Source: Escherichia coli (GTDB taxonomy: Bacteria > Pseudomonadota > Gammaproteobacteria > Enterobacterales > Enterobacteriaceae). Taken from it: 64,000 nt of DNA. Shown in pieces: positions 24,895 to 43,276 of this stretch. Location of the stretch: NCBI RefSeq assembly GCF_051903065.1, contig NZ_CP178438.1, one strand, 5' to 3'. Every line of letters begins with the position of its first letter. Within the stretch, counting starts at the first letter, position 1. A model generated the notes under the pieces. It was given only the letters and a program-made list of their open reading frames with translations. It was not told the DNA's origin and did no database searches. The position numbers and the translations under genes were made by a program.

Positions 24895-25779
24895 ATGTCA
24901 TTCAGCCATTCTTCCCTCTCCGCACAAGTGAAATCATATCTGACGTTTCTTCCTGAAGAAATTCGTCAGAAAATTCTTGAACATCTCCACAGCGTTATTC
25001 ATTACGAACCCGTGATTGGCATTATGGGTAAATCCGGCACCGGCAAAAGTAGCCTGTGTAATGCTATTTTTCAGTCCCATATCTGTGCCACACATCCCCT
25101 GAACGGCTGCACCCGCCAGGCTCATCGTCTTACCCTGCAGATCGGTGAACGCAGAATGACGCTGGTCGATCTGCCCGGCATTGGAGAGACGCCGCAACAT
25201 GATCAGGAATACCGGGCGCTTTACCGTCAGTTACTGCCGGAAGTGGATTTGATTATCTGGATCCTGCGGGCAGATGAACGCGCGTATGCCGCCGACATTA
25301 CCATGCATCAGTTTTTACTGAATGAAGGCGCAGATCCCTCGCGTTTTCTGTTTGTTCTCAGCCATGCCGATCGCGTGTTTCCTGCTGAAGAATGGAATGC
25401 CACAGAAAAATGCCCGTCCCGTCAGCAGGCGCTCTCACTGGCGACGGTGACAGCCCGGGTGGCAACCCTGTTCCCTTCATCATTTCCGGTACTCTCCGTT
25501 GCTGCACCTGTCGGCTGGAACCTTCCGGCGTTTGTGTCGCTGATGATCCACGCACTGCCACCACAGGCAACCAGCGCGGTGTATTCACATATCCGGGGAG
25601 AAAACCGCTCTGAACAGGCCCAGAAACACGCACAACAGACTTTTGGTGAAACCATCGGGAAAAGTTTTGACGTCGCCGTTGCCCGTTTCAGTTTTCCGGC
25701 CTGGATGTTACAGCTTCTGCGTAAAGCCCGGGACCGCATTATCCACCTGCTGATCACACTGTGGGAGCGTCTGTTCTGA
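24895..25779 (+). CDS. YeeP/YkfA/YfjP-family GTPase (CP4-type prophage)
   Basis: P-loop GIMGKSGTGKSSLCNAIF and DLPG motif; N-terminus close to E. coli YeeP/YkfA. Confidence 0.8.
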   Translation: MSFSHSSLSAQVKSYLTFLPEEIRQKILEHLHSVIHYEPVIGIMGKSGTGKSSLCNAIFQSHICATHPLNGCTRQAHRLTLQIGERRMTLVDLPGIGETPQHDQEYRALYRQLLPEVDLIIWILRADERAYAADITMHQFLLNEGADPSRFLFVLSHADRVFPAEEWNATEKCPSRQQALSLATVTARVATLFPSSFPVLSVAAPVGWNLPAFVSLMIHALPPQATSAVYSHIRGENRSEQAQKHAQQTFGETIGKSFDVAVARFSFPAWMLQLLRKARDRIIHLLITLWERLF

Positions 25780-32098: not shown

Positions 32099-32122
32099 GT
32101 TCGAGTCCGGCCTTCGGCACCA
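32099..32122 (+). repeat. 24-bp copy of the tRNA-Leu (leuX) 3' end: island boundary direct repeat
   Basis: GTTCGAGTCCGGCCTTCGGCACCA equals the leuX T-arm/acceptor 3' end (from memory); no D-arm or anticodon arm upstream, so it is an att fragment, not a tRNA gene. Confidence 0.65.
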
Positions 32123-35584: not shown

Positions 35585-36865
35585 TTAGTTACTGATAGTT
35601 TCAGGTTTGGGAAAACTGAACAGTAAATCACGATAGTACTCGTATTGTTTCTGGCGCAACTCGATTTCACGCGGGAGGCCTTCGGTGATGGAGTTTGTCA
35701 GAGTGTCGAATTTATCGAGTATTGCGACGATACGAGCTTGTTCCTTAAGTGATTTTTCGTGATCTTTAGGATATGGAACCGGAATCATAATTTTTGAAAA
35801 ACCATTAATGAGTAGTGTATTAACTTTTGTTCTGGCTACATACTTTGCTTTTTCAGAAATAAACGAATCGGTTTGCATGTAATAGGAAATAAATTTTGGA
35901 TTCAAAGAATGTCGAAAAGCATAACAGTGATCATGAATAGCGATATCGTCATCCCCAAGCCATGCCACTGCTTTACCAACGTCTTCTACAGTCTCCCCCA
36001 CGTCAGTTATCACGACATCTCCATGTTTGGCATAGCGTAATGACGCTGCCATATCAGCTCTAACCTGTGATAACGAATGAGTTGTGTAAACACCATATCG
36101 TGTATATATCTCACCATAATGGATTACACTGATACCACCATCTTCTACATAATCTGCTTTAGTAAAACGTTTTCCACGAATAAACTCACCAATTTCCCCC
36201 AAAGTCTTCCACTCAACCTCACCCTCTTTAAAACTCAACAACTGGTCGCGATAGTAGTTGTACTGTTTTTTACGCATGGTAAGCTCTGCTGTAAGCTCTG
36301 CTGTAAGCTCAGTAAATTTATCCAGAATCCGAACGATTTCAGACTGGATGGCAAGGGATTTTTCCGGATTGCCCGGGCAGGGGATGGGGATGAGTAGTTT
36401 TGACATCAATGCATTTGAGCTTAGATTCGGCTGTGCTCCGCCCCCTGCAAGGATATAAATAGTCTCTGTATTTAACAATAAAAAATGGTATAAATAATTA
36501 TTGTTTAGAATATTTTCTTTGGGTATAAATTTCCCAACACGTTGGTTAAGATAACATTTTATTCCTTTTTTATAAATTCCCACTTTTCCTGTAGTGGCAC
36601 CTGACATTGCAATCAATATATTTCCCATAGATACCTCAAAGGAGGATAAATCTTCCTTGTAATCATTTAGTGAAAAGTATTTCACCTCATCTAAGTCAAC
36701 ATTAAACCCATCTATATTTGTGATTCTAACTATCGGTAACCCAGTTTCTTTAAATAAGCTGCTTTTAAATGCAAATCCATTTTTAAAATCACAAACATCC
36801 TTCAGGGTTTTCCACTCAACCTCAACCCCATCCAGCAATTTTTCCAGATAACTCAACTCGCTCAT
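35585..36865 (-). CDS. hsdS: Type I specificity subunit HsdS (Type IC)
   Basis: Two target-recognition domains separated by the conserved …[23 protein letters not shown]… region with the TAEL repeat; ATG overlaps the hsdM stop. Confidence 0.9.
36279..36310. repeat. 12-bp tandem repeat in hsdS (TAEL repeat, 2 copies plus a partial)
   Basis: GTAAGCTCTGCT x2 then GTAAGCTC on the plus strand, encoding TAEL-TAEL in the HsdS central region. Confidence 0.7.
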
Positions 36866-38416
36866 TTCTGCACCCCGCAGCCTTCAATTTCAGCCACAAT
36901 CGCATCAATATCTTTGCGCAACTGGTCGATTTTGCTGACCGTGGTTTTCAGCTCAGCATTCAGCTCACCGATATCGATAATTTCGCGAGTATCTTTCGCT
37001 TCAACATAGCTGCTCACCGACAGGTTATAGTCATTCGCTACAACGGCTTCAAACGCGACAGATTTCGCCAGATGAGCAACATCTTCCTTGCTGGCAAATA
37101 CCTGCATAATCTGTTCGATATGGGCATCGGTCAGGATATTGTTGTTGGTCTCTTTTTTGAACAGTTCGCTGGCGTCAATAAACTGAACTTTGGTATCGGT
37201 TTTATGTTTAGACAGCACCAGAATATTGACGGCAATAGTGGTGCCAAAGAACAGGTTCGGTGCCAGTGAAATCACGGTTTCGACATAGTTATTATCGACC
37301 AGATACTGACGGATTTTCTGCTCCGCGCCGCCACGGTAAAAAATACCCGGGAAGCAAACAATCGCAGCGCGACCTTTGGCCGAAAGATAGTTCAGCGCAT
37401 GTAGTACAAAGGCGAAGTCAGCTTTGGATTTGGGGGCCAGGACGCCAGCCGGGGCAAAACGTTCATCGTTAATCAGCGTCGGGTCATCGCTGCCAATCCA
37501 TTTCACCGAATACGGCGGGTTAGAAACGATGGCATCAAACGGTTTTTCATCTCTGAAGTGCGGCTCAGTCAGTGTATTGCCCAACTTGATATCAAACTTG
37601 TCGTAGTTGATGTTGTGCAAAAACATGTTCATACGCGCCAGGTTATAGGTCGTATGGTTGATCTCCTGACCAAAAAAGCCTTCTTCGATGATATGGTCAT
37701 CAAACTGCTTTTTCGCCTGCAACAACAGCGAACCGGAACCTGCGGCCGGGTCGTAGATTTTGTTAACGTGGGTCTGCCCGTGCATAGCCAGTTGTGCAAT
37801 CAGCTTAGAGACGTGCTGCGGTGTAAAGAACTCGCCGCCTGACTTACCAGCATTCGCGGCATAGTTAGAAATCAGGAACTCATAGGCATCGCCGAACAGG
37901 TCAATCTGATGTTCGTTAAAGTCGCCAAGCTTTAACCCTTCAACCCCTTTCAGAACCGCAGCCAGGCGGGCATTTTTATCCTTAACGGTGTTACCCAGGC
38001 GGTTACTGGTGGTATCGAAATCAGCAAACAAACCTTTGATGTCAGCTTCTGAAGGGTAACCGTAAGCAGAACTTTCGATAGCAACGAAGATGCTGTTTAA
38101 ATCTGCATTCAGTCTGTCATTGGTATTTGCTTTCGCAGCTACGTTGCAGAAAAGCTGACTTGGGTAGATGAAGTAGCCTTTGGTTTTGATGGCATCGTCT
38201 TTAATGTCATCAGTTATTACGCTGTCATCCAGTTTCGCATAACAGATACTGTCATCACCGGCTTCAATATAGCTGGAAAAATTTTCGCTGATAAAACGGT
38301 AGAAAAGCGCGCCCAGAACGTATTGCTTAAAGTCCCATCCATCGACCGAACCTCTGACATCGTTAGCAATTTGCCAGATCTGGCGATGAAGCTCCGCGCT
38401 GCTGAAGACTGGTCAT
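36862..38416 (-). CDS. hsdM: Type I methyltransferase HsdM (Type IC), apparent frameshift near codon 8
   Basis: C-terminal 389 aa intact (NPPY motif, …[11 protein letters not shown]…). ATG 38416-38414 with AAGGA RBS reads MTSLQQR, but the conserved …[23 protein letters not shown]… continues in another frame. Confidence 0.8.
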
Positions 38417-38722: not shown

Positions 38723-39556
38723 ATGCAAACAGAAGCTGAAGTCTTAACCGATCATAACGAACTAATTTGCTCGACCAGTATTGAGCGTATCGTCACAGGA
38801 CGTGATAGTGCACTGAACCAGATAGCGGCGTTAATCCAAAAGCTTGATGATATCTCCAGCCTGACATCCAGTATTGGCGGTGATGTGGCTGGAACCTGGG
38901 CAATGCGTAATGGATATGCCTTTGATTGCTGGCTGATGCAGCCAACCGACAAAGCGATGCCGGTGATCACCCGAAATATCGATCGCAGTATCTGGCGCGA
39001 TCTCATGCTGAAGTCCGGTATGTTGACTCTGATGGATGCCGAAGCTCGCAGTCAGTGGGCAAAGAATCTGGAGGAGGGCGATCTCCCGGCGATTAGCGAA
39101 GCCAACATCCTGAGTACCTTTGAACAACTTCACCACAATAAGCAGGATGTTTTCGAACGTGGGATTATCAATGTATTTAAGGGATTGAGCTGGGATTACA
39201 AAACCAATAATCCCTGTTATTTCGGTAAGAAGATTATCGTTAACAATCTGGTGAAGCATGACCGATGGGGCTACAGCCTGCACTGGGGCTGGCGGCGAGA
39301 TCAGCTTGCCGATCTGGAACGGATGTTCTATCTGCTGGATGGGAAGGTCATTCCCGATAACCGGCATGATGTTGCGATTCGGTTTATGGACTTCGTTAGT
39401 GCTCACCCGCATGAGCAGGTATTTAATGACGATTTATTTGTCATCCGCTATTACCAGAAAGGCAGTGGGCATATCACATTCAAGCGACTGGATCTGGTGG
39501 ATAAGATGAATGACATTGTGGCGAAGCACTATCCGTCAGCGTTATCAGCAAAATGA
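38723..39556 (+). CDS. Hypothetical protein (277 aa) upstream of the McrBC-like pair
   Basis: ORF with ATG start, same strand as the McrBC-like genes, separated from them by about 360 bp; no catalytic motif recognised. Confidence 0.5.
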   Translation: MQTEAEVLTDHNELICSTSIERIVTGRDSALNQIAALIQKLDDISSLTSSIGGDVAGTWAMRNGYAFDCWLMQPTDKAMPVITRNIDRSIWRDLMLKSGMLTLMDAEARSQWAKNLEEGDLPAISEANILSTFEQLHHNKQDVFERGIINVFKGLSWDYKTNNPCYFGKKIIVNNLVKHDRWGYSLHWGWRRDQLADLERMFYLLDGKVIPDNRHDVAIRFMDFVSAHPHEQVFNDDLFVIRYYQKGSGHITFKRLDLVDKMNDIVAKHYPSALSAK

Positions 39557-39914: not shown

Positions 39915-41969
39915 ATGGTTCAGGATTCATCAGCATTAGCCCCCTTCTTTCGTGCTCAAATTGAAAAAAATAATCAATACAATTCAGTTTGGGGCAAACA
40001 CTACCGCCAGCTTGTAGAACAGATTCAGGCCGAAAAACCAAACTTTTCTGAAGCCACGATTCGGCAGGTATGGTATGAACGTGACAATGGTGTCTCCAGC
40101 CTGATGCAAGGAGGGATGTCATTGGTTGAATTTGAAAATGCACAAAAAGACCTTCTAACGCTCACCCGTCAGATAGCAGAAGAGTGTACACAAGAAAATT
40201 ATAATCGGGTCATTGAACGCCTTATCAAACTTAAAGCGGACGGAGTATTAAATAAGGTATATAGGGCTCTTTGTAATCGTGCTTTTGCAGCAATATACCC
40301 ATCAAAAATTAGCAGTGTCGTGAATGTTAATAATTTTTTTAGTTGCTACAATTATTGCAACAACCATTTCCAGCTAGGTCTTTCCGGAGAACGGGAGTGG
40401 CTGGCTCGCAATGTTGATCTTAAAGAAACGCTAAATCGTGCGCTGGGTGATGATATCGACCCTATTGAGCTGAATATGTCACTTTGGCATCTCTATGCGT
40501 ATGAAATTCAGGATAAAAATGCTATCGGTTTAGTTGGAAGCGAAAGTGCTTTACAAGAAAATGAGCAAGAAGATGATGTTATAAGTTCGCCATTGCCTAA
40601 AAACACAATTCTCTATGGCCCGCCAGGTACAGGTAAAACATATCGTACTATTGAGCTTGCTGTACAAATTTGTGATCCGATCGCTTACTCCCTGCAGGAG
40701 GGTAAGGATGAGAGTGAAAAACGTCGCGAGTTGAAAAAGATTTATGATCAGCTTATCAAAGAAAATCGAGTGCGTTTTATCACCTTTCATCAGAGCTTTG
40801 GTTATGAAGAGTTTATTGAAGGTTTAAGAGCTGAGACTACTGATGACGGTAATGTAAAATACGAAATAAAGGCAGGTATTTTTAAGCAGATATGCGAGGA
40901 TGCCGCCTTTGGTCATGCTGGTGCGCAGGAAATGTTAGATAGCGCACTTACTCGCCTACAAGAACGTTTATCTGAAGGTGAAAATATCACGCTGGAAACA
41001 CAACAGGGTAAGGCCTTCCAGCTGACGTATAAAAGTCAAACCAACTTTGGAATTTTCCCGTCACAATCGAAAAAAGAGGATTTAGGACAGGGTTACAATG
41101 CCTATTTGAAGGATATTCGGCAAGTTTATCAGGATCCACGAGCAAAAGTACATAATCCATCTTATGTACGCAGTATCCTTAACTATTTAATTAATCAACG
41201 TTATCTGCCTCTGAATACTCAGAGCGTAGCTTCAGAAAAAAAGGAAAACTATGTTCTCATTATTGATGAAATAAATCGGGGTAATATTTCAAAAATTTTC
41301 GGTGAACTAATTACCCTTATTGAGCCATCTAAACGGGCTGGTGAGCCAGAATCGCTTAGCGTATTGCTGCCATACTCTTCCACTCCATTTAGTGTGCCGA
41401 ATAACCTTTATTTAATTGGTACCATGAACACTGCTGATCATTCGCTTACTGCACTTGATACTGCACTACGTCGCAGATTTGATTTTGAAGCGATGCTGCC
41501 AGATATTACTGTTCTGAAAGATACTGTCATTAAAGGTATTGATCTGCCTCGTCTATTGCAGACGCTTAACGATCGCATCCAGGTTTTATACGATAGAGAA
41601 CATATGCTGGGGCATGCTTTTTTTATCCCTGTTGTGCAGGCAAAAGAAGACGAAGCTCTGGCATTTGAAAGATTCAAACGGATTATGCGAAATAAGATAC
41701 TACCATTGCTGGAAGAATATTTTTACAATGACTGGCAAAAAATTCGCATGGTACTGGCTGATAACCAAAAAGAGGAAGCACCAGATCTTCAATTTGTACG
41801 TGAGGTGAAATACCAGAAAAAGTATGCCGATCTCTTTGGTGATAACGGAACAGATGACTTGGGAACCAGTTTTCACCTGGCAGCAGAGGATGACAACGTT
41901 TGGGACAATCCAATCGCCTGGCAGCAAATTTATGCACCTCAAAAAGAAAAACGCAGGAGTGCGGAATGA
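39915..41969 (+). CDS. McrB-family AAA+ GTPase with non-canonical N-terminal domain
   Basis: 684 aa; Walker A LYGPPGTGKT, Walker B LIIDEINRGN, McrB-type GTMNTAD motif; the first ~230 aa is a helical region of unknown type. Confidence 0.85.
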   Translation: MVQDSSALAPFFRAQIEKNNQYNSVWGKHYRQLVEQIQAEKPNFSEATIRQVWYERDNGVSSLMQGGMSLVEFENAQKDLLTLTRQIAEECTQENYNRVIERLIKLKADGVLNKVYRALCNRAFAAIYPSKISSVVNVNNFFSCYNYCNNHFQLGLSGEREWLARNVDLKETLNRALGDDIDPIELNMSLWHLYAYEIQDKNAIGLVGSESALQENEQEDDVISSPLPKNTILYGPPGTGKTYRTIELAVQICDPIAYSLQEGKDESEKRRELKKIYDQLIKENRVRFITFHQSFGYEEFIEGLRAETTDDGNVKYEIKAGIFKQICEDAAFGHAGAQEMLDSALTRLQERLSEGENITLETQQGKAFQLTYKSQTNFGIFPSQSKKEDLGQGYNAYLKDIRQVYQDPRAKVHNPSYVRSILNYLINQRYLPLNTQSVASEKKENYVLIIDEINRGNISKIFGELITLIEPSKRAGEPESLSVLLPYSSTPFSVPNNLYLIGTMNTADHSLTALDTALRRRFDFEAMLPDITVLKDTVIKGIDLPRLLQTLNDRIQVLYDREHMLGHAFFIPVVQAKEDEALAFERFKRIMRNKILPLLEEYFYNDWQKIRMVLADNQKEEAPDLQFVREVKYQKKYADLFGDNGTDDLGTSFHLAAEDDNVWDNPIAWQQIYAPQKEKRRSAE

Positions 41970-43276
41970 AATCTTCCAGTCATTTCACTGTGTTCGAATA
42001 CGGGCATTTAGTGAGTGAGGAAGGTGATGCCCGTATAAATAATGCGGTAGTGCTACCTGCAGACCTATTTAAATGGCTTGAGCTGCGCTGTCTGAAAGAC
42101 GATGCTGATAATACTCATCGTTTGCTCACCCTTAGCAGCCGGAATGGAGTAAAAACGCTGCAGGTAAAAAACTATGCAGGAGTAATCTCACTGCCAGGGG
42201 GGCGATTTCTCGAAATCCTGCCTAAAACAGGTCAGGATAATGAGGATACTGTTCGTCAACAAATACTGATGATGTTACGTACGTTAAAATCATTTCGTCA
42301 TATTGCCTCCTCTGAATCTGGCGTCAAAATATCTAAAATGCCTCTGATGGACATCTTTATTCAACAATTTATAGAGAGCGTGCGTAAGATTGTGCAGAGA
42401 GGGTTAAAACGTGACTATTTACGTCAGGAAGATAATCTTCCATGGATAAAAGGAAGATTACGGATCTCTGCACAATTAAGCAAAAACTGTATTAGGCGGG
42501 ATCTTTTTCAGGTGGAGTATGACGAGTACAGCGTCAATCGTCTGGAAAACCGGATACTCAAAACTGCAATCAATAAGATTAGTCGCCAGACCAGTAATCC
42601 ACAATTATTACAGCAGATAACACAGCTGCAGTTTCACTTTGAAAATATCACGTCAGTTCATGATGCTTATATAGCTTTCGAGCAGTTACACTTTGATAGA
42701 CACATGCATCACTATGAGCAAGCATTAGCGTGGGCGAAGATGATTTTATTGGGCGATTCTCCACACTGTATGTATGGGGATGTTAATGCTTTTTCACTGC
42801 TTTTCCCGATGGAGGCTGTTTTTGAATCTTTTGTGACGACATGGATGCGTTATCGTTATTATGATAAATGGCGAGTGGACGCACAGGTAAGTTCAAAAAA
42901 TCTGATTAGTTATAACGGTAAAGCTTTATTTAAGCTGCGGCCTGATATTTGTTTACGGCCTCGTAAAAGTACTACTGGTTCAGTTATTACCTGTGATATT
43001 AAATGGAAGATAGTAAATGGCAGAAAGGACAGTCTTGAACAATCTCAAGCCGATCTCTACCAAATGCTTGCCTATGGATTGAATTACCAGGAGGGGGAAG
43101 GTGATATGATTTTGATATACCCCTATCATAACGGATTTAATCAGCCATCTCCTCATCCTTATGAATTTAGCCATCAGAAGGAAAATAGGTTACGTTTATG
43201 GGTTGTACCTTTCTTTATTGGCGAGAGTTTACAGACATCAGAGTTGCATTTTCCTAGTGGGGCTGAATTTATTTAG
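41966..43276 (+). CDS. McrC-family nuclease partner
   Basis: ATG overlaps the mcrB-like stop (ATGA); C-terminal PD-(D/E)xK-like …RPDICL…CDIKWK…; size and linkage typical of McrC. Confidence 0.75.
   Translation: MKSSSHFTVFEYGHLVSEEGDARINNAVVLPADLFKWLELRCLKDDADNTHRLLTLSSRNGVKTLQVKNYAGVISLPGGRFLEILPKTGQDNEDTVRQQILMMLRTLKSFRHIASSESGVKISKMPLMDIFIQQFIESVRKIVQRGLKRDYLRQEDNLPWIKGRLRISAQLSKNCIRRDLFQVEYDEYSVNRLENRILKTAINKISRQTSNPQLLQQITQLQFHFENITSVHDAYIAFEQLHFDRHMHHYEQALAWAKMILLGDSPHCMYGDVNAFSLLFPMEAVFESFVTTWMRYRYYDKWRVDAQVSSKNLISYNGKALFKLRPDICLRPRKSTTGSVITCDIKWKIVNGRKDSLEQSQADLYQMLAYGLNYQEGEGDMILIYPYHNGFNQPSPHPYEFSHQKENRLRLWVVPFFIGESLQTSELHFPSGAEFI

Follow-up and report, generated by a model that had tools for sequence, protein, structure and literature searches.

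Unit-number variation in the TAEL ruler of a chromosomal Type IC hsdS gene beside leuX of Escherichia coli, probably silent in a background with a defective hsdM

The recognition sites of the Type IC restriction-modification systems EcoR124I and EcoR124II differ in the length of their spacer: EcoR124I, with two units of a 12-bp repeat in hsdS, recognises GAAN6RTCG and EcoR124II, with three units, recognises GAAN7RTCG, the two being related by unequal crossing-over at this repeat, which lies in helix D1 (PMC3874165). One TAEL unit, the four residues encoded by the repeat, corresponds to about one helical turn and places the target-recognition domains (TRDs) 0.34 nm further apart with a rotation of 36 degrees (PMC3874165), and removal of one TAEL from EcoR124II yields EcoR124I and changes the set of phages that is restricted (PMC10644984). 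The DNA analysed here is a 64-kb stretch of an E. coli chromosome (the window) in which an earlier note had pointed out a repeat of this kind within an hsdS gene. The note had pointed to the EcoR124I/II precedent (2 versus 3 copies, spacer length, unequal crossing-over), in agreement with PMC3874165 and PMC10644984, and had suggested that this locus may switch specificity in the same way. The question is whether the unit number varies at this locus and whether such variation would have a phenotype.

The repeat and the locus that carries it

The repeat and the intact genes of the operon are located as follows (identities are to EcoR124I HsdS):

36279-36310, minus-strand reading: 12-bp TAEL repeat, 2 full units (ACAGCAGAGCTT), the homology extending over 8 nt of the TEL codons in front of them (Tandem Repeats Finder and codon reading)
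35585-36865, minus strand: hsdS, 426 aa, intact (ORF; match to PDB 7bst_A, EcoR124 HsdS, E 1e-73, end to end)
HsdS aa 1-18: N-conserved region, 94% identity
HsdS aa 19-158 (36392-36811), minus strand: N-TRD, 17% identity
HsdS aa 159-226 (36188-36391), minus strand: central conserved helix, 96% identity
HsdS aa 227-374 (35744-36187), minus strand: C-TRD, 17% identity
HsdS aa 375-426: C-conserved region, 94% identity
32347-35463, minus strand: hsdR, 1038 aa, intact, EcoR124-type (2w00_A match, PADLOC REase_I)

Tandem Repeats Finder reported the repeat with a period of 12, 2.7 copies, 100% matches and the consensus GTAAGCTCTGCT, and it is the sole tandem repeat with a score of at least 50 in the 64-kb window. 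By chance, 20 bases would match themselves perfectly at an offset of 12 about 64000 x 4^-20 times, or roughly 6e-8 (our own arithmetic). The hsdS codons across the repeat read ACT GAG CTT / ACA GCA GAG CTT / ACA GCA GAG CTT / ACC, so that both the two copies plus a partial one and the encoded string are exactly as the earlier note had described them; its placement of the repeat in the spacer between the two TRDs agrees with the 7bst_A match and with the layout of the regions, which puts the repeat inside the central conserved helix. The units within any one allele are identical at synonymous sites, ACAGCAGAGCTT in the window and ACCGCTGAGCTT both in the EcoR124-type allele of ECO8855 (L002) and in the published EcoR124 primers, as turnover by duplication and loss predicts. 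The repeat is the length-variable 'ruler' of HsdS. The N-terminal conserved region contains a second micro-tandem repeat (36815-36826, hsdS codons 14-17; GTTGAG GTTGAG, 6 bp x2, encoding VEVE), of which one VE unit is lost in a public hsdS allele (P0012; 420 aa, 5 contigs).

The assignment to the EcoR124 family, implied in the earlier note, was borne out by the comparison with the solved structures and with EcoR124I HsdS. Residues 1-1038 of HsdR align with residues 1-1038 of EcoR124I HsdR (2w00_A; full length, 2253 bits), and an intact allele of HsdM aligns with the EcoR124 HsdM chain 7bst_D over 1-518 (1150 bits); the hsdM of the window is 99.4% identical to this intact allele over residues 8-518, downstream of the frameshift that is discussed below. 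The operon order is hsdM-hsdS-hsdR on the minus strand (38416-36862, 36865-35585 and 35463-32347), with an overlap of the hsdM stop and the hsdS start (ATGA). The context of the repeat, including MRKKQ, is the same in the HsdS of the window and in EcoR124I HsdS, and shuffling of TRDs among the HsdS relatives is visible in the alignment. Type I families are classically defined by subunit exchange, and the classical criterion for a family is genetic complementation or antibody cross-reaction (PMC3874165); by every sequence criterion (HsdR/HsdM similarity, HsdS architecture, TAEL repeat and gene order) the locus is a Type IC system. The earlier note had held that TRDs and a spacer unrelated to the EcoR124 family on alignment would speak against its suggestion: the spacer is 96% identical and the TRDs are indeed unrelated (17%), but within the family it is the TRDs that vary, and their divergence does not provide a valid test. 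The exact HsdS of the window is present in NCBI (P0001).

The locus lies at a tRNA gene that has served as an insertion site, and its surroundings contain:

32099-32122, plus strand: 3' remnant of leuX (tRNA-Leu), an att-type repeat of 24 nt (flank comparison)
1-32098: island inserted at leuX, absent from the chromosome of strain 23CRST027
1160-1927 and 5368-6142: IS1, two copies in opposite orientation (left island)
6258-7580: YadA-like trimeric autotransporter (left island)
10691-12214: group II intron reverse transcriptase/maturase (left island)
24895-25779: GTPase-like ORF (left island)

From 32099 rightwards the window is collinear with 23CRST027, in the order hsdRSM, DUF4942, McrBC-like genes, a phosphorothioate-DNA-binding endonuclease and HNH, followed by nan and fim. 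The hsd operon of 23CRST027 adjoins an intact tRNA-Leu (leuX), ahr and yjgR; in the window the hsd locus lies immediately to the right of the leuX remnant with the other, inserted island to its left, and a tRNA scan detected no tRNA gene in the window. Other genomes carry yet another island at the leuX/hsd junction, which bears a primase. The region that comprises hsd, McrBC, the phosphorothioated-DNA-binding restriction endonuclease and HNH is a defence island. Its McrB-family (684 aa) and McrC-family genes are intact in the window (39915-43276); in 23CRST027 an IS903B interrupts the McrB gene, and another copy of this element is located further to the right. The DUF4942 gene (38723-39556), which is divergent from hsdM and gave no PADLOC match, accompanies the IC operon in all the chromosomal loci that we examined (L001-L014, L019 and L020).

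A frameshift at the start of hsdM

hsdS and hsdR are intact, the third subunit gene is not:

36862-38416, minus strand: hsdM pseudogene, 2-nt deletion at about 38395-38398, codon 8, in a (CG)3 run (three-frame translation, comparison with intact alleles)

Where intact hsdM alleles read CAGCAGCGCGCGGAGC, the window reads CAGCAGCGCGGAGC. Translation from the true start (ATG at 38416) gives MTSLQQR, then goes out of frame and stops after 17 codons (38363-38416), the remainder of HsdM lying in another frame. We looked for a rescue start and found no in-frame ATG, GTG or TTG between the frameshift and 38031; at best a 389-aa HsdM remnant would be made from 38031, without HsdM_N, and the 389-aa calls indeed carry N6_Mtase only. 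The same gene is annotated by PGAP as 'frameshifted' in 23CRST027 (NZ_AP045789.1). The identical 2-nt deletion was recovered from 11 independent assemblies, which rules out an assembly artefact. No second hsdM is present in the 64-kb window.

Both the methyltransferase (M2S) and the restriction complex require HsdM and cannot assemble in its absence. The suggestion that this locus may switch specificity thus holds in part: the unit number does vary in nature, as set out below, and with a broken hsdM the switching is seen at the level of the DNA only and probably has no phenotype. We consider it likely that the variation in unit number of this chromosomal TAEL ruler beside leuX is silent. The mechanism itself is already known; the family member in which it is encountered here is uncharacterised and pseudogenised. 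The system of the window should be annotated as inactive (hsdM pseudogene) and its motif is not expected in the methylome. A separate, 1-nt hsdM deletion (alignment column 1289) occurs in one locus of the related haplotype in which hsdM is otherwise intact (L014).

Variation in unit number at this locus and in other IC systems

We compared 14 loci over 6.5 kb (12 loci fetched for the HsdS forms given below, the window and 23CRST027); the variation in unit number recorded in this way is variation between isolates. Over 6201 bases of hsdRMS the sole difference between the window and the chromosome of 23CRST027 (NZ_AP045789.1) is one extra GTAAGCTCTGCT unit in the latter, the HsdS of which has 430 aa and three TAEL units. 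The haplotype with the hsdM deletion comprises 11 loci (the window, 23CRST027 and nine others) that are identical over 6.5 kb apart from a singleton SNP and the number of units, which is 1, 2 or 3. In the protein database the exact 426-aa HsdS of the window was found on 14 contigs, a 426-aa variant with E15K on 49 contigs and a one-TAEL form of 422 aa on 47 contigs (95 index blocks). The earlier note's expectation that the repeat number can vary at this locus is thereby confirmed, with 1, 2 or 3 units in otherwise identical loci, and the haplotype offers a natural example of the EcoR124I/II length switch in which the unit count is nearly the sole polymorphism in 6.5 kb.

These differences could be read as assembly or sequencing artefacts around a repeat that is in fact a fixed feature of the coiled coil, and short repeats can in principle be mis-assembled; moreover, the 3-unit form was found in two genomes only, both from one study. 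Any read, however, is much longer than the array of 32 nt, the 1-unit allele (47 contigs) and the 2-unit alleles (14 and 49 contigs) come from NCBI, ENA and Logan assemblies, a plasmid-borne pair with two and three units (see below) recurs in hundreds of finished plasmids, and the experimental precedent is solid (PMC3874165, PMC10644984). We regard the artefact reading as very improbable.

Also at odds with the data is the notion that the repeat is a simple-sequence tract for ON/OFF phase variation, like the simple-sequence repeats (SSRs) in hsdS and hsdM of host-adapted pathogens. It is a tandem repeat inside hsdS, such tracts have been catalogued (PMC7383803), and the SSR phasevarions (Atack et al. 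2019, PMC7383803) have in common with the present case that a tandem repeat in a Type I gene gives rise to heritable, reversible diversity. Their tracts, however, frameshift the gene ON or OFF, whereas a unit of 12 bp is a multiple of three and keeps the frame at every copy number, so that a change in the window repeat would affect the spacer length only; the 1-, 2- and 3-unit forms all encode a full-length HsdS, and with 1-3 units there is no long tract. An ON/OFF function can practically be dismissed, and the repeat is better regarded as a ruler that changes in length.

The order of events within the haplotype can be reconstructed from a sister haplotype with an intact hsdM, the E15K form of HsdS and two units (for example GCA_038017015.1 and GCA_047663355.1), which is separated from the window haplotype by about 55 substitutions that are concentrated in hsdM and upstream of it. 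Since this sister has two units, it was a 2-unit locus that suffered the hsdM deletion, and the steps to one and to three units followed later, in a system that was already unable to methylate or restrict. The haplotype occurs in three flank states (tRNA intact, island A as in the window, and island B), and we considered whether homoplasy of the unit number with respect to the flanking island would point to recurrent switching; two events (2->1 and 2->3) suffice to explain the three flank states, and we do not infer repeated switching from them. With two events in the repeat and a single SNP in 6.5 kb, the mutation rate of the repeat appears to exceed that of a single base by several orders of magnitude, a rough figure that ignores the tree. 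In hsdS and hsdR the sister haplotype (loci L012-L014) is almost identical to that of the window; the pair represents a recombination mosaic, the breakpoint of which lies close to the boundary of hsdM and hsdS.

Unit-number variants are not confined to this locus. DNA of the IC-type hsdRMS was found in 1613 of the 5426 complete E. coli genomes (chromosomes and plasmids), at 1942 places, 775 of which are on plasmids, so that some genomes hold more than one IC system. In a pattern survey of the 120 best homologues, the unit number was polymorphic in 4 of the 12 TRD-pair groups with multiple members. The pair mentioned above consists of two HsdS proteins of IncF plasmids (423 and 427 aa), which differ by one TAEL and nothing else and are both accompanied by an intact hsdM and an annotated hsdR; we estimate from an even sampling of the ranking that PLSDB holds roughly 120 plasmids with the 423-aa form and 150 with the 427-aa form. 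One-unit alleles with an intact 518-aa HsdM and other N-TRDs occur at the same chromosomal site as the window locus. Pairs that differ in unit number are therefore common in the IC systems of E. coli, including those on hundreds of IncF resistance plasmids, and they bear on the sequence-based prediction of restriction barriers to the spread of plasmids and phages.

Predicted recognition and possible routes to a phenotype

[quoted passage not shown] In the background with a dead hsdM the length variation would be a neutral by-product of a mutable repeat, unless an IC-family HsdM acts in trans.

Part of the site can be predicted. The C-TRD of the window HsdS is identical (148/148) to that of the HsdS encoded on plasmid CP032258, the system of which, Eco067II, is reported to methylate CC(6mA)GN6RTTG (bioRxiv 10.1101/2020.06.07.138552), and because of this identity the 3' half-site of the window HsdS is predicted to be RTTG. 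There is a small mismatch in tying Eco067II to that HsdS: the residue given as 'Y204H' in the preprint is residue 203 in our own count of the 427-aa protein. Eco067II HsdS has three units and, by our count, 8 nt between the methylated positions, like the 3-unit EcoR124II and EcoDXXI. By analogy, the number of nucleotides between the methylated adenines is predicted to be 7 for the 2-unit form of the window, 6 for the 1-unit form and 8 for the 3-unit form; we infer this change per unit by extrapolation from EcoR124I/II, the EcoDXXI hybrids and the gonococcal system NgoAV, in which strains with N6 and N7 motifs differ correspondingly in their count of LEAT repeats (PMC6789123). For the half-site of the N-TRD, PDB yielded weak TRD matches only (1yf2, 7vru and EcoKI), and the ST131 methylome paper deals with other families. 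Two uncharacterised proteins, P0019 and one from Morganella, have this N-TRD in common with the window HsdS.

If a change in TAEL number had a phenotype at all, it would arise only through provision of an IC-family HsdM in trans, a route that is plausible in principle, or through reversion of the CG run. One could go further and propose that a specificity switch is operating in this strain, with HsdM derived from a co-resident plasmid or restored by a (CG)2->(CG)3 reversion, so that a TAEL change alters methylation and restriction. In support of this, hsdS and hsdR have remained intact throughout the 11 loci of the frameshift haplotype, subunit exchange inside a family is the classical definition of the Type I families (PMC3874165), and plasmids of E. 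coli often carry IC systems, with more than one system in some genomes. In a haplotype with one SNP only, however, the intact state of hsdS and hsdR indicates recency and not selection, and, with the lesion identical in all deleted loci, nothing points to repeated on/off slippage at the CG run. Apart from the lack of a second hsdM within the window, a plasmid of 108 kb in the 3-unit strain showed no Type I genes over its first 50 kb, and early termination of hsdM should lower the translation of hsdS, the start of which overlaps the hsdM stop (ATGA). We therefore consider an operating switch unlikely and retain the reading that the variation is silent. It would be a further, improbable step to suppose that the HsdM of an IC system on a newly arrived IncF plasmid can make use of the intact hsdS and hsdR of chromosomal IC loci with a dead hsdM, and that the silent TAEL variants of these loci constitute a latent reservoir of specificities; if this were true, variants would build up free of the cost of self-restriction and become active upon acquisition of the plasmid.

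The probably silent ruler of the window compares with the characterised systems as follows. It resembles EcoR124I/II (plasmid R124, the Type IC prototype) in the order hsdM-hsdS-hsdR, in an HsdR and HsdM that are near-identical to the solved EcoR124 chains, in the presence of the 12-bp TAEL repeat at the same position of HsdS, with two units as in EcoR124I, and in natural variants that differ by one unit, as the I/II pair do. It differs in that: i) both TRDs are unrelated (17%), so that the half-sites are not expected to be GAA and RTCG; ii) the synonymous unit is ACAGCAGAGCTT, against ACCGCTGAGCTT in the EcoR124-type allele; iii) the repeat is flanked by TEL and T, against TAL and N in EcoR124; and iv) the locus is chromosomal, beside leuX, and not plasmid-borne, exists in a 1-unit form as well and has an hsdM pseudogene. 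With the IncF-plasmid system RM.Eco067II / RM.EcoST101IX and its 2-unit sibling it shares the C-TRD (148/148) and the IC framework, and the 3-unit (427 aa) and 2-unit (423 aa) forms of that system parallel the allelic series of the window; unlike the window locus, the system has another N-TRD, is plasmid-borne, has an intact hsdM and has a reported methylation motif. NgoAV (Neisseria gonorrhoeae, Type IC, repeat LEAT/EATL) is similar in that the number of a four-residue repeat in the centre of HsdS varies between natural strains (PMC6789123), and dissimilar in species and repeat sequence and in that its specificity is also affected by a homopolymer frameshift that truncates HsdS, a kind of tract that is absent here. 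Insertions were observed elsewhere in the family (E. coli records H5 and H7-H11): related IC hsdS genes are disrupted by IS3 (chromosomal, strain ET201) or by IS1 (several IncF plasmids), and insertional inactivation of hsdS appears to be common in the IC family.
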